A stretch of 39,466 bases of DNA from a phage, in the sequence record PZ445457.1; one strand, written 5' to 3'. Below the pieces are notes generated by a model. That model ran no database searches, was not told where the DNA came from, and worked only from the letters and a program-made list of their open reading frames with translations. A program made the translations under genes and the position numbers. Below are positions 1-39,466 of this stretch, piece after piece; position 1 is the stretch's first letter; each line of letters begins with the position of its first letter.

Positions 1-59
1 TCAACGTGATTGGTTGTGGATGGGAAGGTAACTACCTACGACGCTCTTCTGGTATCTAA
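1..59 (+). CDS. gene 12: Tail tubular protein B (gene 12), C-terminal fragment; continues in frame from window end 39466
   Basis: Joining 39466 to 1 gives ...TTPLNVIGCGWEGNYLRRSSGI-stop (TAA 57-59), matching the recalled T7 gp12 C-terminus. Shows the window is a circular permutation. Confidence 0.85.
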   Translation, partial: NVIGCGWEGNYLRRSSGI

Positions 60-87
60 CCGTAAACACCCCGACTCAATAAGTGAA

Positions 88-110
88 CAATACGACTCAC
101 TATTGGGAAG
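88..110 (+). promoter_or_regulatory. Phage RNAP promoter (phi13-like)
   Basis: caatacgactcactattgggaag, 23-mer matching the T7 class III promoter core, between gene 12 stop and gene 13 start. Confidence 0.8.
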
Positions 111-137
111 GGGGTTTATACTTAAAGGAGAAACTCT

Positions 138-551
138 ATGTTAATAATCAGACCTACTAAAGAAACAGACTTCGAGAGATTCACTCCGTCACCTGAAGAC
201 ATCGCTGAGGCACATGCCTACGGGATTGAACCATCATTTCCACCAGCTAATGAGTGTGTCACTATGTCCCTTCATGGGATGCCAGTGGCTATAGGTGGCA
301 ATTGTGGCGACCAAGTGTGGTTCGTGACGTCCGCTCGTGTTTGGAAACTAAGCGTGAAGACCCGAAGAGAGTTCCGAAAGCTCATTCTGGAGTATCGTGA
401 TACCATGCTCAAACAGTATCCGATTATCTGGAACTACGTTTGGGTCGGCAACAAGTCCCACATTAGGTTCTTGAAGTCTATTGGTGCGGTGTTCCATAAT
501 GAGTTTACTGGTGACAGTAATCAATTCCAACTATTCACTATAGGAGGTTAA
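138..551 (+). CDS. gene 13: Internal virion protein gp13-like (137 aa)
   Basis: ORF in the syntenic slot between genes 12 and 14, T7 gp13-like size; assigned by position only. Confidence 0.7.
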   Translation: MLIIRPTKETDFERFTPSPEDIAEAHAYGIEPSFPPANECVTMSLHGMPVAIGGNCGDQVWFVTSARVWKLSVKTRREFRKLILEYRDTMLKQYPIIWNYVWVGNKSHIRFLKSIGAVFHNEFTGDSNQFQLFTIGG

Positions 552-7498: not shown

Positions 7499-9466
7499 AT
7501 GGCTAACAAGATTCGTACTGTGATGACTTACCCGCTGAATGGTGCCGTGAACTTCACGATTACCTTTGATTATCTGGCTCGTAAGTTCATCCAAGTGACA
7601 CTTATTGGTAAAGACCGTAAAGAACTGGTTCTCAATCAGGACTACCGTTTTACCAGTAAGACTCAAATTACAACTACTCGTGCGTGGACTGCCGCTGATG
7701 GCTACCAGATGATTGAGATTCGTCGATTCACTTCGGCTACCGACCGTCTGGTTGATTTTGCTGATGGCTCAATCCTCCGTGCATATGACCTGAACATCTC
7801 GCAGATTCAAACCCTGCACGTTGCCGAAGAAGCACGAGACCTCACTGCGGATACCATTGGTGTCAACAATGATGGTCACTTAGATGCTCGTGGTCGTAAG
7901 ATTGTCAACTTGGCGTATGCCACAAATGACTATGATGCTGTTCCTTTAAAGCAGGTTAAAGAGCGTGAATCCTCTGCATGGAATGCTGTAACAAAGGCTA
8001 ACGAACATGCCGACCGTTCCAATAAGGAAGCAAACCGTTCTCGTGATGAGGCCAACCGTGCTCAACGTGAAGCTGACCGCTCAACTCAACAGGCAGGTGT
8101 CTCTACGCAACAAGCAGTTGAGTCCAAGAAGCAAGCTGACCGTTCCAACTCTGAGGCCAACCGAGCTAAAGGTTATGCTGAAAGTATGACCGCAAGTGTC
8201 GCTGAGGCTAAGAAACAGGCTGACCGTTCCAACTCTGAGGCTAATCGTGCTCGTGATGAGGCCAACCGTGCTGCTGGAGAAGTGACTAAAGCTGCCGCTG
8301 AGGTTGCCAAGGCTGCTGCACACGTTGAGACCGCTAAGGGCCATGCTGACCGAGCCAACACTGAGGCAAACCGCTCTAAGAGTGAAGCTGACCGTGCAAA
8401 GACCGAGGCTGACAAGTTGGGGAACATGAACTCACTGGCTGAGGCTATTGACAGGGTTGAGGCTCCTGATGTTTACTTCAAGAGGAATGTTATAGCCGGA
8501 CACAGATTGGAGACTTCTGGAGGCTCACATCTTCACCCTAATGAGATTAAATTGGTTAACAATAAATCTCCAGACCAGCACTTCATTGTACAAGCGTGGG
8601 GAACTGGAGATCCTAATAATAGGGCGCAGGTGTTTGAGGTGAAGGATAACTTGGGTCAATACGCATTCTATATCCAGCGCCAGAAGAAGACAGACCAAAC
8701 TTGGCAAATGAGTGTGAACGGCTCTCTATCCTGCCAAATAGTAAATTCAAACTTGGGAATAGAATCCACTAACGAGAAGGCCACTGTCAAGTTTAAGACG
8801 TGGGGTGGTGGGTGGGACCAATGGACTGGTGTTGGTGTCCCTAACGTGCAGCATGACATTGCGGGACAGGGAGATGTAGCGTATCTCCTTGAGAGGGCAA
8901 CGATATGGGGCAAGGAACATTTATATGCAAAGGCATTATATAACAACGGCAATGGGGCATCATTCTTCATTCGCCACTACCTGAGAGGGGCATACTTTGA
9001 CCTACGGTCCGATGGCACTCTTATCAGTTCGACTGGTTGGAATATCCCAGCCGATGGCAACCTGTACATCAGGAAGTATGGGCTGTACATTGACGCGTGG
9101 GTCAACAAACGCCTTGGCGAACATGCCTACAACAAGAGCGAGACAGACAACCTAGTGAATGGTCGATTGACACAAGCACAAGCTGATGGGCGATACGTCC
9201 GTAAGAATGCTGGGTGGGCTGAAGTGTGGGAAGGAAGTGCTGGAGGTGGTGTCTCGGTGGGTCTCTCTCAAGATGTCCGCTGGAGAACCATCTGGATTCA
9301 AACACAAGGTCGATGGAACCCTGTTCAAATTGGGGACAATGGGTCTTACTATATCTCATCGAACGGAGGTTGGCTACAGTTTACCATCTCGAATAACGGT
9401 AGAACATTCCGTAACGATGCGGATAGAGCCTCTGTTCCTACGAGAATCTTGGTTCAAAACCAATAA
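7499..9466 (+). CDS. gene 17: Tail fiber protein gp17 (655 aa); conserved N-terminal tail-attachment domain, expanded repetitive shaft, divergent C-terminal receptor-binding region
   Basis: N-terminal ~150 aa and C-terminal tip (WEGSAGGGVSVGLSQDVRWRTIWI...SNGGWLQFTISNNG) match recalled T7 gp17; middle contains ADRSNxEANRA repeats. Confidence 0.95.
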   Translation: MANKIRTVMTYPLNGAVNFTITFDYLARKFIQVTLIGKDRKELVLNQDYRFTSKTQITTTRAWTAADGYQMIEIRRFTSATDRLVDFADGSILRAYDLNISQIQTLHVAEEARDLTADTIGVNNDGHLDARGRKIVNLAYATNDYDAVPLKQVKERESSAWNAVTKANEHADRSNKEANRSRDEANRAQREADRSTQQAGVSTQQAVESKKQADRSNSEANRAKGYAESMTASVAEAKKQADRSNSEANRARDEANRAAGEVTKAAAEVAKAAAHVETAKGHADRANTEANRSKSEADRAKTEADKLGNMNSLAEAIDRVEAPDVYFKRNVIAGHRLETSGGSHLHPNEIKLVNNKSPDQHFIVQAWGTGDPNNRAQVFEVKDNLGQYAFYIQRQKKTDQTWQMSVNGSLSCQIVNSNLGIESTNEKATVKFKTWGGGWDQWTGVGVPNVQHDIAGQGDVAYLLERATIWGKEHLYAKALYNNGNGASFFIRHYLRGAYFDLRSDGTLISSTGWNIPADGNLYIRKYGLYIDAWVNKRLGEHAYNKSETDNLVNGRLTQAQADGRYVRKNAGWAEVWEGSAGGGVSVGLSQDVRWRTIWIQTQGRWNPVQIGDNGSYYISSNGGWLQFTISNNGRTFRNDADRASVPTRILVQNQ

Positions 9467-9510: not shown

Positions 9511-9717
9511 ATGTTGTCATTGGATTTTAACAACGAGGTAGTGAAGGCTGCTCCGATTGTAGGGACAGGTGTAGCCGATGGTGCTGCCAGACTGTTCTTC
9601 GGCCTATCACTTAACGAGTGGTTTTATGTAGCCGCAATTGCCTACACAGTGGCTCAAATTGGTGCCAAGGTAGTCGATGTGGTTATCAAATGGAAGAAGG
9701 AGGGTAGAGATGTCTAA
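9511..9717 (+). CDS. gene 17.5: Class II holin gp17.5 (68 aa)
   Basis: MLSLDFNNEVVKAAPIVGTGVADGAARLFFGLSLNEWFYVAAIAYTVAQIGAKVVD, near identical to recalled T7 gp17.5. Confidence 0.95.
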   Translation: MLSLDFNNEVVKAAPIVGTGVADGAARLFFGLSLNEWFYVAAIAYTVAQIGAKVVDVVIKWKKEGRDV

Positions 9718-11092: not shown

Positions 11093-12853
11093 ATGTCGCA
11101 ATCCCAAGAAGCTAAGAATGCGCTCATCATTGCGCAACTTAAGGGTGACTTCGTGGCCTTCCTGTTCGTCTTATGGAAGGCTCTGAACTTACCTAAACCA
11201 ACCAAGTGTCAGATTGATATGGCACGTACACTCGCTAATGGCGACCACAAGAAGTTTATCCTACAGGCGTTCCGTGGTATCGGGAAGTCCTTTATCACCT
11301 GTGCGTTCGTCGTGTGGGTGCTATGGCGTGACCCTCAATTGAAGATACTCATCGTGTCTGCCTCCAAGGAACGTGCTGATGCTAACTCCATCTTCATCAA
11401 GAACATTATCGACCTCCTTCCGTTCCTCTCTGAGTTGAAACCTCGACCGGGACAGCGAGACTCCGTGATTAGCTTCGATGTGGGATTGGCTAAACCAGAC
11501 CACTCTCCCTCTGTGAAGTCTGTAGGTATCACTGGTCAGTTGACTGGTAGCCGTGCTGACATCATTATCGCAGATGACGTTGAGGTTCCCGGTAATAGCT
11601 CTACGAGTTCTGCCCGTGAGAAGCTCTGGACGTTGGTAACTGAGTTTGCTGCATTACTTAAGCCGCTGCCTACCTCTCGTGTTATCTACCTTGGCACACC
11701 TCAAACTGAGATGACGCTCTACAAGGAACTTGAGGATAACAAAGGGTACAGCACAGTAATCTGGCCGGCACAGTATCCTCGTAACAATGCTGAGGCTCTC
11801 TACTATGGGGACCGCTTGGCTCCGATGCTTAAGGCTGAATACGATGAAGGCTATGAGTTACTTCGTGGTCAACCTACTGACCCTGTTCGATTCGACATGG
11901 ATGACCTCCGTGAGCGTGAACTCGAATATGGTAAAGCTGGCTACACTCTTCAGTTCATGCTTAACCCGAACCTTAGTGATGCCGAGAAGTACCCGCTACG
12001 ACTCCGTGACGCTATCGTGTGCGCTGTGGACCCTGAACGTGCCCCATTGTCTTACCAGTGGTTGCCGAACCGTCAGAACCGCAATGAGGAACTCCCTAAC
12101 GTTGGTCTGAAGGGTGATGACATCCATGCGTTCCATACGTGCTCTTCTCGTACCGCTGAGTATCAGTCTAAGATTCTGGTCATTGACCCAAGTGGTCGTG
12201 GTAAGGATGAGACCGGGTATGCAGTCCTCTACTCACTGAACGGTTACATCTACCTGATGGAAGTCGGAGGGTTCCGTGGTGGCTACGATGATGCTACCCT
12301 AGAGAAGCTCGCTAAGAAGGCCAAGCAGTGGAAGGTACAGACAGTCGTCCACGAGTCCAACTTCGGTGACGGTATGTTCGGTAAGATTTTCTCTCCGATT
12401 CTCCTGAAGCACCATAAGTGTGCCTTAGAGGAAATCCGTGCTAAGGGCATGAAGGAGATGCGAATCTGCGATACTATCGAGCCGTTGATGGGTGCACACA
12501 AGCTGGTCATTCGTGATGAGGTTATCCGTGAGGACTACCAGACTGCTCGTGACCTTGATGGGAAACATGATGTCCGCTACAGTGCGTTCTATCAGATGAC
12601 CCGTATGACCCGTGAGCGAGGCGCTGTGGCACACGATGACCGCATTGATGCTATCGCATTGGGTATCGAGTTCCTTCGTGAAGGGATGCTTGTGGACAGC
12701 CGTGTAGGTGAAGAAGAGATGACCCTTGAGTTCCTTGAACACCACATGGAGAGACAGACCATTGGTGGTGATGCTATCCATAGCTACGAGGCTGGTGGCG
12801 TAGACATCTACTACGAGGACGATGGAGACTCTAGCTGCTTCATTGAGTGGTAA
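11093..12853 (+). CDS. gene 19: Terminase large subunit gp19 (586 aa)
   Basis: [34 protein letters not shown]... essentially collinear with recalled T7 gp19; ATPase and nuclease regions conserved. Confidence 0.97.
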
Positions 12854-12940
12854 TAGATAAGTATGCGGGAAAGGTGCATAGGTAAGCACTTAGTACCGCT
12901 ACGTTACCGTTAAGTAACTTACTGATATACATGAAGAAAT

Positions 12941-12963
12941 TAATACGACTCACTATTGGGAAG
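12941..12963 (+). promoter_or_regulatory. Phage RNAP promoter (phiOR-like), upstream of gene 19.5
   Basis: taatacgactcactattgggaag. Confidence 0.8.
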
Positions 12964-13120
12964 GGCACCCTAAGACAACTTAAAGACACTTAAAGACTGC
13001 ATATGCAAAGTGCATACTTAATGACTAACTCTTAGAGACCCTTACAGTGAGGGATGATGGTAATAGTAATTACATCCCTACTATCAGTGTAACCATCAAG
13101 TATAACAAGGAGGACGCTCT

Positions 13121-13276
13121 ATGCGCTTACTATCCGTACTCAAGACACTGGCAACGCATCGAGTGACTTACAAATTTCTCGTTGTACTTGCTGCTTCCAC
13201 TGGTCTCGCATCTAGTGCTGAACACATCGGTGAACTGGAGACTCTGCTTTGTTCTCTACTCACTTGTGTTCCTTAG
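13121..13276 (+). CDS. gene 19.5: gp19.5-like small membrane protein (51 aa)
   Basis: MRLLSVLKTLATHRVTYKFLVVLAASTGLASS...LLCSLLTCVP resembles recalled T7 gp19.5; RBS aaggagg upstream; below the track 60-aa cutoff. Confidence 0.65.
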   Translation: MRLLSVLKTLATHRVTYKFLVVLAASTGLASSAEHIGELETLLCSLLTCVP

Positions 13277-13738
13277 ACTGCTCATCGGCGCTTAGTGCGC
13301 TCTTAGTGATTATGGTCGATATATACATCTTCCCTATAATCACTGTAAGAAGTCAACTCTAAGAGTAACCCTTATGTACCACTCTCTATGGTCTACAGGG
13401 TCTCTTAGGGTCTCTCACGTAGTCTCACCGCTATGCTCCTGCGTAGCACCTTATGATAGAGCCTCTGTGGTTAACCTTATGAGCCTTGATGTACCCCCCT
13501 TTAAGAATCCTACAGAAAAATCTGAGAGGGTATCTCATAGTTCATACAAAGTGTTTCCCCCCTATGGCCTCCTTCAGTCCACTCAAAGAGTGCCACCCCT
13601 ATGGTAACTTTATGTTTACTTAATGTCAATCCTTATGTGAGACATTGGGATGACTTATGGTTCACCACTAGATGTGGTGCTTAGGGTGACTTAGTGATAC
13701 TATATGTAGTCCTCTATGTGTCCCTATCTGTAAGTGAC

Positions 13739-13868
13739 CTTTGAGTCATCACCTTATGTTTCCTCTTTGAGTCATCACCTTATGTTTCCTCTTTGAGTCA
13801 TCACCTTATGTTTCCTCTTTGAGTCATCACCTTATGTTTCCTCTTTGAGTTAACACCTTATGACCTCC
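13739..13868 (+). repeat. Tandem direct repeat, 26-bp unit ctttgagtcatcaccttatgtttcct, 4 exact copies plus 1 degenerate
   Basis: Directly visible at 13739-13842 with a diverged fifth copy to 13868; positionally analogous to the T7 left-end repeat array just inside the terminal repeat. Confidence 0.9.
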
Positions 13869-13982
13869 TTATGGCTGGCTATCCTTATGTTAACCTTCAG
13901 TCGGTGCCTTATGTTTATCAGTGACCAGTAGGCTACGTCACTAAGAGAGAATCACTATCTTACTCTGTTTAGCAGTCTCTGA

Positions 13983-14021
<39 letters not shown>

Positions 14022-14077
14022 AGTAGAATTGACTGAGTGCTTATAGTGCCTTAAAGCTGGTTTATAGTCAATAGCCT

Positions 14078-14100
14078 TTATACGACTCACTAATGGGATA
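14078..14100 (+). promoter_or_regulatory. Phage RNAP promoter (phiOL-like)
   Basis: ttatacgactcactaatgggata, first phage promoter after the genome-end region. Confidence 0.65.
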
Positions 14101-14184
14101 GGTTGATTATGGTCTAATTATAATCCCTCCTTATAGTGCTAACTTAAAGACCACTTAAAAGATAACTTAAAGTCTAACTAAGGG

Positions 14185-14213
14185 TTGACTCTAAGAAACA
14201 ACTATGTTCTAAT
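14185..14213 (+). promoter_or_regulatory. Host sigma70-type early promoter (A1-like)
   Basis: TTGACT, 17-nt spacer, TCTAAT. Confidence 0.6.
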
Positions 14214-14322
14214 GGCTACCAGTTGAGAGAGACACAACGCTACCAACTACCAGACAAGACCTAGAGTTATCTGGTAAGGCTGAAGGGTCTCAAGTAGTCA
14301 TCAACCAGACATACGAAAGTGG

Positions 14323-14351
14323 TTGACTCAACGAAAGCAATAACGTAGTAT
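14323..14351 (+). promoter_or_regulatory. Host sigma70-type early promoter (A2-like)
   Basis: TTGACT, 17-nt spacer, TAGTAT. Confidence 0.6.
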
Positions 14352-14416
14352 AGCAGTCGTCAACAACTGATCGCCCTCTGAAACAACATGAGGTGTCATG
14401 GTGAGAAACAAAGTAG

Positions 14417-14446
14417 TTGACAAGTAGTGACGATAAGATGTAAGAT
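14417..14446 (+). promoter_or_regulatory. Host sigma70-type early promoter (A3-like)
   Basis: TTGACA, 18-nt spacer, TAAGAT followed by GTACCAC as in recalled T7 A3. Confidence 0.6.
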
Positions 14447-14637
14447 GTACCACGACATAACGTTCTTGTGATGTCCCACACTGAAAGGGACTCGGTGCTA
14501 ACGAAGCCTGCACTTAAAGCTCTTTAACAATTTGGATGAATAGCACTCTTGAGATGACGACAACAGCGATTAACTCAAGGTGACTCGAAAGAGAGAAGCC
14601 TTTATGATAATCACTGCAACCACATAAGGTAATCATC

Positions 14638-15096
14638 ATGATTCACACTAAAGAGCAAGCTAACGTTTTCTATGTACTGGTAAGCGCATTCCGTTCTAAC
14701 CTCGACGATGAGGTCAACATGAGTCGCCACCGCCACATGGTTAATAATCTGCGCAACGCACCGGGTCTTTATGGTATCGTTGAGTCTACCGATTTAACTG
14801 GCTGTTACCGCGAAGCCATCTCAAGTGCACCGACTGAAGAGAAAACAATCCGTGTACGTTGTAAAGACAAGGCACAGGTTCTTAATGTCGCACGACTGGC
14901 CTGTAATGAGTGGGAACAAGATTGCGTACTGGTCTATAAGTCACAGACTCACACGGCTGGCTTAGTGTACGCTAAAGGCATTGACGGCTATAAGGCTGAA
15001 CGTCTGCAAGGTAGCTTCCAGCGCATCCCTAAAGGTGCACCAATCCAAGGCTGCTTCACGGTTGACGAGTTCGGCAAATACTGGCAGGTAGCATAA
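14638..15096 (+). CDS. gene 0.3: S-adenosyl-L-methionine hydrolase (SAMase), T3-type gene 0.3 anti-restriction protein (152 aa)
   Basis: ...VFYVLVSAFRSNL.DEVNMSRHRHMV...STDLTGCYREAISSAPTEEKT.RVRCKDKAQ.LNVARLACNEWEQDCVLVYKSQTHTAGLVYAKGIDGYKAERL matches recalled T3 SAMase, not T7 Ocr. Confidence 0.85.
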   Translation: MIHTKEQANVFYVLVSAFRSNLDDEVNMSRHRHMVNNLRNAPGLYGIVESTDLTGCYREAISSAPTEEKTIRVRCKDKAQVLNVARLACNEWEQDCVLVYKSQTHTAGLVYAKGIDGYKAERLQGSFQRIPKGAPIQGCFTVDEFGKYWQVA

Positions 15097-15463: not shown

Positions 15464-16567
15464 ATGAACTACACCGACATTCAGGCACGTCTGGCAATCA
15501 TCAAGTCACTCCCGATTAGCGAACTGGACAAGCGCCAGCCTCTTCTGGTTGCACTGGCTGCTGACATCGTGAACGGTGAGACAAGCGATGGCAACGACAC
15601 AGATGGGTCGCAGGGTCTTGAGTATCAGGACTATTGGCACACCTTGGGTGCACTGATGCGTGATGCAGGTTTCCGCATGTTAGGCAATGGTCACTTTAGC
15701 GCGGCTTACTCGCACGAAATGTTACCGGGTCGAGTCATCAAGGTTGGCTTTAAGAAAGAGGATTCAGGCGCTGCATACACTGCATTCTGTAGGATGCACC
15801 AAGGCCGAGCGGGTATCCCTAACGTCTATCACGTAGCACGTCATGCGGGTTGCTATACGGTCGTACTGGACCGCTTAAAAAGCTGTGACCGCTACGCTAA
15901 CGATGTTCACGCAAAGTATGCAAGTGCTGCGCAGGAGTTCATTGAGTGCTCTGGAGGTGATGCCGATTGGTACGCACAATATGTTAGCAAGGAGTTCATT
16001 GAGACATGCAAGATGATTCGTGAGTTCTTCCACGGTATTGCATCTTTCGACATGCACAGTGGGAACATTATGTTCGACGAGAACGATGTAGCTTACATCA
16101 CTGACCCTGTTAGTTTCTCTCATGACCGTGAACGTGAGGACGGTTTCCCTTTAGACCCTGATGCACTGATTGCCGAGGTCGAGGCGATAGCTAACGAGCG
16201 CATCATTGAACGGTGCCGGAACCGCAAGGCCAAATGTGACCCTAACGGAACCTTTCAGGTTAACCGCAAGGCCGCAATGAAACGCCGTAAGCGCAACCGC
16301 AAGTTACGTGCTAAACATGCAGCGGAAGGAATGCAACAGTTTGTCAAAGGGCGTCTTGAGCGTAGAGCTATTGACCGAAATGAACGCCGTGCTGAGATGT
16401 TCATGGGGTCTGGCTGGCATGACTTCTGGTTACGCAACGGTAACACACTGGTACGCAAGGTTGACCAAGTGAACGGCCTTAAGTGGCAACTAGGGGACCG
16501 ATTGGCAATACAGGCTGGTCGCCCTTTGAACATCGACAAGGTACTTGACGCTAAACTTATGGGCTGA
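15464..16567 (+). CDS. gene 0.7: Serine/threonine protein kinase and host transcription shutoff protein gp0.7 (367 aa)
   Basis: LGNGHFSAAYSH...RVIKVGFKKEDSGAAYTAFCRM.QGR.GIPNVY.V.RHAGCYTVVLD...IASFDMHSGNIMF...YITDPVSFS matches recalled T7 gp0.7. Confidence 0.95.
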   Translation: MNYTDIQARLAIIKSLPISELDKRQPLLVALAADIVNGETSDGNDTDGSQGLEYQDYWHTLGALMRDAGFRMLGNGHFSAAYSHEMLPGRVIKVGFKKEDSGAAYTAFCRMHQGRAGIPNVYHVARHAGCYTVVLDRLKSCDRYANDVHAKYASAAQEFIECSGGDADWYAQYVSKEFIETCKMIREFFHGIASFDMHSGNIMFDENDVAYITDPVSFSHDREREDGFPLDPDALIAEVEAIANERIIERCRNRKAKCDPNGTFQVNRKAAMKRRKRNRKLRAKHAAEGMQQFVKGRLERRAIDRNERRAEMFMGSGWHDFWLRNGNTLVRKVDQVNGLKWQLGDRLAIQAGRPLNIDKVLDAKLMG

Positions 16568-20448: not shown

Positions 20449-20468
20449 TACGACTCACTATTGCGAAA
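20446..20468 (+). promoter_or_regulatory. Phage RNAP promoter (phi1.3-like; +2 C variant)
   Basis: taatacgactcactattgcgaaa. Confidence 0.6.
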
Positions 20469-20470
20469 GA

Positions 20471-20513
20471 GTTAAACTAAAGGTCATCTATACGGTGGCC
20501 TTTGTGATTAACT
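20471..20513 (+). promoter_or_regulatory. Conserved hairpin element, candidate RNase III site (R1.3-like)
   Basis: gttaaactaaaggtcatctatacggtggcctttgtgattaact; second copy of the element family. Confidence 0.5.
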
Positions 20514-20549
20514 TTTGTTTACTTAATAACCAACAATAGGAGTTCCATC

Positions 20550-26875: not shown

Positions 26876-27178
26876 ATGGCTATTAAATTCCCCGGCAACA
26901 CAATCCGTCTGTCTGACACCATCGACCAGTATGCTCGCCGAGTGCACATCAACGTTCGCAACGGCAAGGTAACTCTGGTCTATCGCTGGAAGGACAGTAA
27001 GTCCACCAAGGCGCACACACAGCGTGTGACTCTGGATGACACACAGGCAGGTCGTCTGCTGGCCTCCGTTGCTGTAGCTGCTACTGTGGCTGTAGGTGAA
27101 GACAATGTTCGTCAGGTTCTGCTGGGTAAGACAGTAGAGTCTGAGGGCAACATGCTTGCTGACAAGTGTGAAGAGTAA
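26876..27178 (+). CDS. Hypothetical protein (100 aa), gene 4.5/4.7 region
   Basis: RBS taggag; ORF in the + strand operon context; no motif recognised. Confidence 0.6.
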   Translation: MAIKFPGNTIRLSDTIDQYARRVHINVRNGKVTLVYRWKDSKSTKAHTQRVTLDDTQAGRLLASVAVAATVAVGEDNVRQVLLGKTVESEGNMLADKCEE

Positions 27179-27180
27179 GA

Positions 27181-27223
27181 GTTAAACTAAAGGGCATCTA
27201 CATGGTGGCCTTCGTGATTAACT
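27181..27223 (+). promoter_or_regulatory. Conserved hairpin element, candidate RNase III site
   Basis: gttaaactaaagggcatctacatggtggccttcgtgattaact; third copy of the element family. Confidence 0.5.
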
Positions 27224-27234
27224 TTTGTATGGAA

Positions 27235-27265: not shown

Positions 27266-27445
27266 TATGCGTAATCGTAATGTAATCGAAGCTGAAATCG
27301 CTAAACTGGAAGCTGAACTGGCAGACGTTAAAGAGTATGAATGTGCTCGTGATTCTGCGGTACACATCCTGAAGAACTTAGGGTGGACTCGTGTTCGCGG
27401 TAAGTGGGGTGAAACCTACCAAGGCAAACACCAAGCTGTTCGATA
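27266..27445 (+). CDS. Hypothetical protein (59 aa)
   Basis: MRNRNVIEAEIAKLEAELADVKEYE... short coiled-coil then basic tail; below track cutoff. Confidence 0.4.
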
Positions 27446-27453
27446 AGGACACC

Positions 27454-27666
27454 ATGACCCACATTAAGGCTGGTGACTTCTGCGCATCAACTGAGACATC
27501 CTCTCTATGGTACGTGCGCGCTGTCGCTGGCAACATCTGCTGGTGCTCACGAGTGTCCCGCATTGCTCCTAATGGAACCTTAGTAACCAGCAACAACGTT
27601 GGCATCAAAGCTGAGAACCTGAAGGTAATCAACGTGAAAGACTATATGGGATACACCCATCGTTAA
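27454..27666 (+). CDS. Hypothetical protein (70 aa)
   Basis: Internal ATG of track ORF 27391..27666 preceded by taaggac; immediately upstream of DNA polymerase. Confidence 0.45.
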   Translation: MTHIKAGDFCASTETSSLWYVRAVAGNICWCSRVSRIAPNGTLVTSNNVGIKAENLKVINVKDYMGYTHR

Positions 27667-27685
27667 ACTTTAAGGAGTAAACACA

Positions 27686-29815: not shown

Positions 29816-30043
29816 ATGGCATGGCGATACAGGATTCGGGAAGTCCGAATAACTACAGGTGAGACTTTATACTACCCACAGTTCCGTCATGCGTGGCTAC
29901 CATTCTGGTTCCACTTTAAGGGCTACACAGAAGAACGTAGGGTGTCATTCACTTATTATTCCGAAGCATTGGGGTTCATCAATGAATGTAAACTAAATGA
30001 TGAACCTGAGGAACGGAATGTTATCAGAAACCACTATCTTTAA
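29816..30043 (+). CDS. Hypothetical protein (75 aa), gene 5.3 position
   Basis: RBS aggagg; aromatic-rich sequence; no recognised motif. Confidence 0.55.
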   Translation: MAWRYRIREVRITTGETLYYPQFRHAWLPFWFHFKGYTEERRVSFTYYSEALGFINECKLNDEPEERNVIRNHYL

Positions 30044-35160: not shown

Positions 35161-35261
35161 GACATTACGTTCTCCCACTTTGAGTGATACACAATGAGAA
35201 CCAACTCGTTTCAAGTAGTACCTCACACATTAAACTTTAAATCAACAGAAGGAGATTCAAC

Positions 35262-36530: not shown

Positions 36531-37121
36531 ATGCGTTCCTATGAGACTACCCTAGAGACTGGCGAAGAGTTGGCTGCGGTCAATGACATCTTGGCCTCTA
36601 TCGGTGAACCACCTGTGTCCACTTTGGAAGGTGATGCTAACGCCGATGTTACCAATGCTCGTCGAGTTCTCAATAAGATTAACCGACAGATTCAGTCCAA
36701 GGGCTGGACGTTCAACATTGAGGAAGACCAACAGTTGCTACCTGATGTGTTCAACGGATTGATTCCTTACATGTCCGATTACCTGTCTGTGATGACACCG
36801 GGAGGCGCTACTGCCTATGTCAACCGAGGTGGTTACGTGTTTGACCGGACTACTGGAACTGACGTGTTTAAAGAACCAATCACTGTGACCATTATCAAGC
36901 TGAGAGAGTTCTACGAGATGCCTGAGTGTTTCCGCTTCTGGATTGTCACCAAAGCTGCCCGTCAGTTTAACAACAGGTTCTTTGGTGCTCCTGAGATTGA
37001 CGCAGTGTTAGCTGAAGAAGAGCAAGAAGCAAAGATGCAGTGTCACGAGTATGAATTGGACTTTGGTAACTTCAACATGCTTGATGGTGATGCCTTCACT
37101 GGCGGTCTGCTATCTCGCTAA
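36531..37121 (+). CDS. gene 11: Tail tubular protein A gp11 (196 aa)
   Basis: MRSY......[51 protein letters not shown] matches recalled T7 gp11. Confidence 0.97.
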
Positions 37122-37146
37122 TGATAACAACTTAAGGAGGTCTCTA

Positions 37147-39466
37147 ATGGCTCTTATTTCACAATCCGTCAAGAACCTGAAGGGCGGTATCAGTCAACAG
37201 CCAGACATCTTAAGGTTCCCCGAACAGGGTTCCGAACAGATTAACGGCTGGTCTTCGGAGACTGAGGGTCTTCAGAAGCGTCCACCTTTTGTCTTCACTA
37301 AGACCATTGGAGACCAGAATGCCCTTGGTGCAAAACCACTCATCCATTTAATCAACCGCGATAGTGTAGAACAGTATTACGTTGTGTTCACAGGACAGGC
37401 AGTCCGAGTGTTCGACCTCAATGGCAAGGAGTACACCGTGAAAGGTGACTTGAGCTACGTGAAGGTAGGAAACCCGCGTGATGACCTGCGAATGGTGACG
37501 GTTGCTGACTATACGTTTATCGTCAACCGCAACATGGTGGTTCGTGCCGATAAGACACCGCTCTATACTCTGAAAGAGAACGGAGACTGTTTGATTAACG
37601 TTCGAGGTGGACAGTATGGGAGAACGCTTGCATTCACAATAAACAACGTCCGTATTGAGTACAAGATTGCACAAGGTGACAAGCCTGAACATGTGCAAGA
37701 GACCGATGCGCAGTGGCTCGTTAAGAAACTGGCAGGTCTTGCTCGTGCTCACGATTCCTTCAAGGACTGGAAGTTCAACGAGGGGTCTGGCTTCATACAC
37801 GTAATCGCTCCGGGCAACAGTCAGATTAACCAGTTGTCCACCGAGGATGGCTATGCTAACCAGTTGATGAACGCTGTGATGCACACAAGCCAGTCATTCA
37901 GTAAGTTGCCAATCGAGGCTCCTAATGGATACACTGTGAAGATTGTGGGTGACACCTCTAAGACTTCCGATATGTTCTATGTCCAATATGACAACGTGAA
38001 GAAAGTCTGGAAGGAAGTCGCAGGATGGGGAGTTGAGAAGGGTCTCAATAGTGCCACTATGCCACACGCTTTGGTCCGTCAATCAGATGGCTCATTCGCT
38101 ATGCAGGTTCTACCGTGGGCACAGCGCTCTTGTGGGGATATGGATACTAACCCAACTCCGTCTATCGTAGACCAGAAGATTAACGATGTGTTCTTCTTCC
38201 GTAACCGCTTAGGGTTCCTCGCTGGTGAGAACATTGTGATGTCTCGTACCTCCAAGTATTTCTCACTGTTCCCTGCGTCAGTGGCTAACCTGTCAGATGA
38301 TGACCCGATTGATGTGGCTGTATCCCACAACCGTATCTCAATCCTGAAGTATGCCGTACCGTTCTCCGAAGAGTTGCTGCTATGGTCTGACCAAGCACAG
38401 TTCGTTCTGTCTGCCTCTGGCATCCTCTCACCGAAGTCTGTAGAGTTGAACCTTACGACTGAGTTCGATGTGTCCGACCGCGCACGTCCTTATGGTGTTG
38501 GTCGTGGTGTGTACTTTGCGTCACCTCGTGCCTCTTATACATCACTGAACCGCTACTATGCTGTACAGGACGTAAGTTCCGTTAAGTCTGCTGAGGATAT
38601 GAGTGCTCACGTTCCAAGCTATATCCCCAACGGTGTGTTCTCCATTCGTGGTTCTGGTACTGAGAACTTTATCTCTGTGCTCTCTGCGAACGCCCCTAGT
38701 AAAATCTTCCTGTACAAATTCCTGTATCTAAACGAAGAGATTACACAACAGGCGTGGTCACATTGGGAACTTGGAAGTAACGTAACGGTTCTGGCTTGTG
38801 ACTCTATTGGCTCAACTATGTACCTTGTGTTGCGCAATCAGTCACACACTTGGATGTGCCGAGCACACTTCACGAAGAACAGCATTGACTTCGATAGCGA
38901 GCCTTACCGCTTGTATATTGACAACAAGATAAAGTATGTGATTCCTAAAGGTGCCTACAACGATGACACTTACACGACCACTATCAAGCCTGTGGACATC
39001 TACGGGATGAAGTATTGGAAGGGTAAGTTCTACATCGTAGCCTCTGACGGTCTGGTATCGTGGTTCGAGCCACCTCGTGGTGGATGGCCTAATGGTGTCC
39101 CTGTGTTGTCAATGAGTGGGAACCGAGAGGGTGAGACTATTTACATTGGGTTGGCTATAGACTTCCGTTATGTGTTCTCTAAGTTCCTCATTAAGAAGAC
39201 CGCCGATGATGGTTCAACAGCTACCGAGGATATTGGGCGCTTGCAGCTTCGCCGTGCGTGGGTCAACTATGAGGACTCCGGTGCATTCACTGTGGAGGTT
39301 GAGAACACCTCTCGACTCTTCAGCTACGACATGGCTGGTGCTCGCTTGGGTTCCAATGCTCTACGTGCTGGTGGACTTAATGTTGGTACTGGTCAGTTCA
39401 GATTCCCGGTTGCTGGCAACGCGCAGTTGAACGAAGTAAGGATTATCTCTGACCACACTACACCGC
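37147..39466 (+). CDS. gene 12: Tail tubular protein B gp12, N-terminal 773 codons; continues at window position 1
   Basis: MALISQSVKNLKGGISQQPDILRFPEQGS.Q.NGWSSETEGLQKRPP matches recalled T7 gp12; no stop before window end; completes at 1..59. Confidence 0.95.
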   Translation, partial: MALISQSVKNLKGGISQQPDILRFPEQGSEQINGWSSETEGLQKRPPFVFTKTIGDQNALGAKPLIHLINRDSVEQYYVVFTGQAVRVFDLNGKEYTVKGDLSYVKVGNPRDDLRMVTVADYTFIVNRNMVVRADKTPLYTLKENGDCLINVRGGQYGRTLAFTINNVRIEYKIAQGDKPEHVQETDAQWLVKKLAGLARAHDSFKDWKFNEGSGFIHVIAPGNSQINQLSTEDGYANQLMNAVMHTSQSFSKLPIEAPNGYTVKIVGDTSKTSDMFYVQYDNVKKVWKEVAGWGVEKGLNSATMPHALVRQSDGSFAMQVLPWAQRSCGDMDTNPTPSIVDQKINDVFFFRNRLGFLAGENIVMSRTSKYFSLFPASVANLSDDDPIDVAVSHNRISILKYAVPFSEELLLWSDQAQFVLSASGILSPKSVELNLTTEFDVSDRARPYGVGRGVYFASPRASYTSLNRYYAVQDVSSVKSAEDMSAHVPSYIPNGVFSIRGSGTENFISVLSANAPSKIFLYKFLYLNEEITQQAWSHWELGSNVTVLACDSIGSTMYLVLRNQSHTWMCRAHFTKNSIDFDSEPYRLYIDNKIKYVIPKGAYNDDTYTTTIKPVDIYGMKYWKGKFYIVASDGLVSWFEPPRGGWPNGVPVLSMSGNREGETIYIGLAIDFRYVFSKFLIKKTADDGSTATEDIGRLQLRRAWVNYEDSGAFTVEVENTSRLFSYDMAGARLGSNALRAGGLNVGTGQFRFPVAGNAQLNEVRIISDHTTP

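Follow-up and report, generated by a model that had tools for sequence, protein, structure and literature searches.

Gene 12 at the Two Ends of the Window

The window, that is, the whole stretch of phage DNA analysed here (39,466 bp), closes inside a gene for a tail structural protein and opens with the remainder of the same gene. The 5′ part of gene 12, encoding tail tubular protein B or the nozzle, occupies positions 37147..39466 on the + strand, where the frame from the ATG at 37147 runs for 2320 nt, or 773 codons plus the first base of codon 774, without a stop. The 3′ part (1..59, + strand) holds the last two bases of codon 774, codons 775-792 (NVIGCGWEGNYLRRSSGI) and a TAA stop at 57-59, and the split codon is restored when the final C of the window is joined to the TC of bases 1-2, giving CTC for leucine. 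The joined product counted from ATG 37147 is 792 aa long and has the C-terminus LNVIGCGWEGNYLRRSSGI. A ribosome-binding site read from the sequence (TAAGGAGG, 37133..37140, + strand) lies 6 nt upstream of this ATG. The gene is placed within the structural gene block, with gene 11 for tail tubular protein A as its upstream neighbour (36531..37121, + strand; exact match to QXV76838.1) and gene 13 as its downstream neighbour across the window boundary (138..551, + strand; exact match to QXV76840.1). The promoter phi13 (88..110, + strand; core 89-108 with 0 mismatches) is found just after the gene 12 stop, and phage BA14 carries its phi13 at the same place.

The open frame alone is weak proof that the two parts belong together, since a run of 19 open codons is expected by chance in (61/64)^19, about 0.4 by our own calculation, or roughly 40% of cases, and the significance comes from the protein content. 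The joined 792-aa protein matches the Pfam family PF25675 (Phage_nozzle) with residues 1-792 on positions 1-794 of the 794-position profile at 1189.7 bits (cut-off 27), and in a sequence alignment with the solved T7 gp12 chain 6r21_a its residues 1-792 pair with 1-794 at 1191.9 bits. The start residue at ATG 37147 is aligned with the first residue of T7 gp12 and the first position of the profile, and of the 19 C-terminal residues that the window start encodes, 18 are identical to T7 gp12. Gene 12 also shares 94.2% amino acid identity with BA14 gp12 over BA14 residues 1-795, an alignment running from window position 37147 round to 56. An earlier sequence-only reading of this DNA had claimed that gene 12 meets no stop before 39466 and that the frame read on from position 1 yields the T7 gp12 C-terminus; both points are borne out by the figures above, and the alignment of the joined translation to T7 gp12, which it had proposed as a check, extends over the full length of the protein. 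Gene 12 of the window is an intact, ordinary tail nozzle gene.

Bases 39466 and 1 are Neighbours

Three independent lines of evidence place the last and the first base of the window side by side. First, a query of 1200 nt across the junction matched 67 phage records at a coverage of at least 80%, and all records among the matches listed were matched in a single piece; the best of these, Carena and ETEP21B (96.8%), continue in one piece past the tail protein and into both of the internal virion protein genes that follow. Second, when the rotated window was compared with BA14 by blastn, BA14 positions 21847-39816 formed one piece of 18,051 columns, extending from window position 35178 through 39466/1 to 13725. 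Third, and decisively, if the joined frame is read from an in-frame ATG further upstream (37051), its 824-aa translation is identical at every residue to QXV76839.1, a deposited protein annotated as “tail tube protein B” in Escherichia phage CarlSpitteler. The two ends of the window share no exact overlap of 10-399 nt, and the join at 39466/1 therefore neither drops nor repeats sequence. Bases 39466 and 1 are thus neighbours in the source molecule, as the sequence-only reading had stated.

Shorter versions of the joined protein (792, 811 and 813 aa) gave no exact match among deposited proteins and only the 824-aa version did, because the depositors chose another start codon and not because the join is wrong. 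Likewise, a 54-nt sequence spanning the junction had no exact match in IMG/VR, which is uninformative because the genome is absent from that collection.

The start codon chosen in the public annotation deserves a comment. QXV76839.1 starts 32 codons upstream of ATG 37147, inside gene 11, and the additional in-frame stretch (37051..37146, + strand) overlaps the end of that gene at 37121 and is probably not translated. The gene 12 products of most relatives measure 792-795 aa and favour the start at 37147, as do the Pfam profile, T7 gp12 and the ribosome-binding site; the public N-terminus is probably over-extended. A similar N-terminal extension of gene 12 is present in the record of the sister phage ErnstBeyeler.

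Identity and Completeness of the Genome

All six proteins tested (gp11, the 824-aa version of gp12, gp13, the holin, the tail fibre protein and the large terminase) are exact matches to CarlSpitteler proteins, and the source of these six is one sequence of 39,466 bp, the same as the window. CarlSpitteler is Bas68 of the BASEL collection and belongs to the genus Berlinvirus (PMC10927641). The window is the whole, already published genome of this T7-like coliphage (Maffei et al., 2021; PMC8594841), and the record and the window are the same genome, differing only in the point where the circle is opened. In the phage collection that we searched, the closest whole genomes were PhiV-1, vB_CECAV_058 and ErnstBeyeler at about 93% over 25 kb (best 93.4%), and the best match to gene 12 was 96.6%.

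For completeness, the 50 coding sequences annotated in BA14 were translated and searched against the rotated window, and 48 of them are essentially whole and in T7 order from gene 0.3 to gene 19.5. The remaining two are the HNH endonuclease of BA14 (“2.8”, between genes 4.7 and 5), for which the rotated window gave no match, and gene 4.7, of which only the first 47 of 138 aa were matched. The single-subunit RNA polymerase gp1 is 98.2% identical to that of BA14, and 13 matches to phage RNA polymerase promoters, phi13 among them and all on the + strand, were found against 0.01 expected by chance. The claim that the window holds one complete T7-like genome is upheld by the BA14 gene content and by the CarlSpitteler sequence, also of 39,466 bp, provided that “complete” is understood as including one copy of the terminal repeat.

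The differences from BA14 at window positions 27267-27685 and 29816-30043 are mobile-element regions. The second of these, lying between genes 5 and 5.5, contains a reading frame of 75 aa that is absent from BA14 and gave no Pfam hit; a frame of the same size at the corresponding position of ErnstBeyeler is annotated as a putative homing endonuclease. Gene 0.7, a protein kinase gene (15464-16567), encodes a product 74.7% identical to that of BA14, compared with 96-98% for the neighbouring genes, and resembles an early gene that has diverged locally or recombined. In the tail fibre gene 17, four copies of a 68-nt segment (7995-8398; 65-82% identical to the reference copy) are spaced by 105-126 nt and probably reflect a repeated structural unit of the fibre shaft. 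The N-terminal domain of gp17 matches Pfam Phage_T7_tail, and the whole protein is 87% identical to BA14 gp17.

Where the Circle was Opened

The accession numbers of the CarlSpitteler proteins follow the order holin (QXV76796), i-spanin (76798), large terminase (76801), gp11 (76838), gp12 (76839), gp13 (76840) and tail fibre (76844). The lowest number that we saw belongs to the holin gene 17.5 (9511..9717, + strand; exact match to QXV76796.1), whose first base we infer to be position 1 of the public record, and the highest to the tail fibre gene 17 (7499-9466; exact match to QXV76844.1). The record of ErnstBeyeler (Bas67) has the holin as its first gene (1..207) and the tail fibre gene as its last. 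The methods published for the BASEL phages (PMC8594841) explain circular contigs by repeated genome ends that have fused, and give the small terminase gene, or the operon containing it, as the place of linearisation. Because of the accession order, this linearisation rule and the ErnstBeyeler record, the public CarlSpitteler record almost certainly starts at window position 9511, leaving gene 12 intact in its interior. A record opening at the holin implies that the window was rotated further, by 29,956 bases, to give the break in gene 12, and base 1 of the window would correspond to about base 29,957 of the record. A rotation by exactly 30,000 bases, with the record starting after the gene 17 stop at 9466, was rejected on the ErnstBeyeler record and the BASEL rule.

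A different account would have the public record itself opened inside gene 12, starting TCAACGTGATTGG..., with the break coming from the depositors and not from later handling. The equal length of the deposited CarlSpitteler sequence and the window would fit such an account, but an intact 824-aa gene 12 product was deposited, the accession order puts the start of the record between gene 17 and the holin, and the linearisation rule stated by the depositors agrees with the ErnstBeyeler record on a holin start, all of which makes it very unlikely.

Terminal Repeat and Predicted Virion Ends

By homology to BA14, Kvp1 and T7, a direct terminal repeat of 193 bp is predicted at 13533..13725 (+ strand), present in the window as a single collapsed copy. 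The predicted left virion end lies at 13533 (TCTCATAG...) and the predicted right end at 13725 (...TGTGTCCCT). Records that were deposited from real ends start or stop within window positions 12600-14800; among them, the right ends of BA14 and FE44 fall at 13725, the left ends of Kvp1 and vB_CECAV_058 at about 13533, and the annotated 194-bp repeat of BA14 aligns directly to 13533-13725. Kvp1 has a repeat of 194 bp with termini determined by primer walking (PMC2579914), and the T7 repeat used in the comparison measures 160 bp. With a slash marking the boundary, the left end reads ...AAAAATCTGAGTGACTA/TCTCACAG in T7 and ...AAAAATCTGAGAGGGTA/TCTCATAG in the window, and the right end reads ...TCTCTGTGTCCCT/ATCTGTTACAG in T7 and ...TCTATGTGTCCCT/ATCTGTAAGTG in the window. 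The boundary motifs ...AAAAATCTGAG-N6-TA/TCTCA... and ...TGTGTCCCT/ATCTGT... are conserved in place between gene 19.5 and the promoter phiOL in T7, BA14, Kvp1 and the window. A left end at 13534, taken from the Kvp1 record, was dropped in favour of 13533 on the BA14 and T7 alignment.

A search of the window for a second copy of the 193-bp segment found none, as expected for a collapsed assembly. With its single repeat copy the window therefore represents one concatemer unit, and the predicted virion DNA measures 39,466 + 193 = 39,659 bp. The sequence-only reading had placed the true ends away from the window ends, which agrees with the T7-type end sequences that bound the single repeat at 13533-13725, as judged by homology.

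The chance that the ends differ from those of BA14, Kvp1 and T7 in spite of the conserved motifs, either through another repeat length as in ETEP21B or through permuted packaging, appears very small; if they did, the boundaries of the interior “repeat” (13533-13725) would not be the virion termini. The annotation of ETEP21B gives another repeat, of 145 bp, and end calls therefore vary between depositors within the genus Berlinvirus. Packaging by the headful, with truly circularly permuted DNA, no fixed ends and every opening point equally valid, is a specific case that we hold to be extremely unlikely. A circular assembly is compatible with it, as circular assembly alone cannot separate permuted genomes from terminal-repeat genomes; yet the repeat boundary sequences of T7, BA14 and Kvp1 are conserved in place, the large terminase gp19 is 93% identical to that of BA14, and the ends of Kvp1 were determined experimentally (PMC2579914). 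The description of the window as “circularly permuted” in the sequence-only reading thus holds for the way in which the record is written and, given the conserved T7-type end motifs, fails if taken to mean headful packaging. Fixed ends flanking 13533-13725 remain the reading that we adopt.

Short Repeats and Hairpins

Starting 14 nt to the right of the terminal repeat, a 26-bp unit (CTTTGAGTCATCACCTTATGTTTCCT) is repeated in tandem at 13739-13862, with 4.8 copies at 97% identity. PhiV-1 and Kvp1 have one to two of these units at this site, where ETEP21B carries a different array with units of about 13 bp. The array resembles the series of short repeats adjoining the terminal repeat of T7. Further along, in the non-coding DNA between the terminal repeat and the promoter phiOL, lies a perfect (GA)16 microsatellite (13988-14019), aligned to (GA)4 in PhiV-1 and Kvp1, in a segment that BA14 lacks, and likely a replication-slippage expansion. 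Both the 26-bp array and (GA)16 have the appearance of expansions by slippage in left-end DNA that is non-coding.

A 52-nt element is present in two copies of 92% identity at 20467-20518 and 27177-27228, just upstream of genes 1.3 and 4.7. Its folded form is a long hairpin, with energies of -20.8 and -17.1 kcal/mol and z scores of -4.8 and -2.8 for the two copies, respectively. The two positions fit the T7 RNase III processing sites R1.3 and R4.7, for which we take the hairpins to be candidates.

Origin of the Split Gene

Taken as a whole, we are highly confident that the window is the CarlSpitteler genome in the form of a circular assembly with a collapsed repeat, cut inside gene 12, and that the virion ends flank 13533-13725. 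Virions of this phage type contain linear DNA bearing a short direct repeat at each terminus; short-read assemblers merge the two copies of the repeat, upon which the contig closes into a circle with one copy, and a circle needs a cut at some point before it can be written linearly. The depositors would have cut this circle at the holin gene, which leads the operon that includes the small terminase gene, and the window would be the same circle cut 29,956 bases further, inside gene 12. With the cut inside gene 12, the last 19 codons therefore stand at the window start. In the replicating concatemer, the single repeat copy would represent the junction of genome units and would be duplicated at packaging by the terminase (genes 18 and 19). 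Gene 12 encodes the tail nozzle protein, which is placed below gp11 at the portal.

That the window might instead be a piece of a longer molecule, such as a concatemer, a prophage or a misassembly, with non-adjacent ends and a truncated gene 12, has nothing in its favour other than a reading frame running off the window end, and it is virtually excluded and indeed refuted by the exact identity of the joined frame with QXV76839.1, alongside the 39,466 bp common to the deposited sequence and the window, the collinear single-piece alignment across the join in many relatives and the gene content, with no gene duplicated and, relative to BA14, only the homing endonuclease and most of gene 4.7 missing.

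The division of gene 12 between the window ends is an artefact of how a circular short-read assembly is written out and carries no biological meaning; the genome brings no new biology. The split matters for data handling only: a gene divided by the linearisation of a circular assembly is missed by gene finders or called truncated. Annotation of the window should begin with a rotation, ideally one that makes 13533 the first base and appends a copy of the 193-bp repeat on the right.

Comparison with Known T7-Like Phages

T7 gp12 (PDB 6r21, 7boy, 7ey7) shares with the gene 12 product of the window an end-to-end alignment, a near-identical C-terminus, TTPLN(V/I)IGCGWEGNYLRRSSGI, and the place between genes 11 and 13; the window product is two residues shorter and shows ordinary sequence divergence. 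Among the phages of the genus Berlinvirus, within the Studiervirinae, BA14 (EU734171) and Kvp1 (FJ194439) are collinear with the window over the whole genome, and BA14 shows about 86-94% nucleotide identity across the aligned blocks. Both of these records begin at the true left end and carry the 194-bp repeat twice, once at each terminus, whereas the window has one interior copy. ErnstBeyeler (MZ501064), Carena (OR769031) and vB_EcoP_S523 (MH031343) are, like the window, Berlinvirus circles opened at an arbitrary point, and each gives one continuous interior match that begins at the end of gene 19, crosses the terminal-repeat region and reaches into gene 0.3. These three circles were opened between genes, whereas the window was opened inside gene 12.
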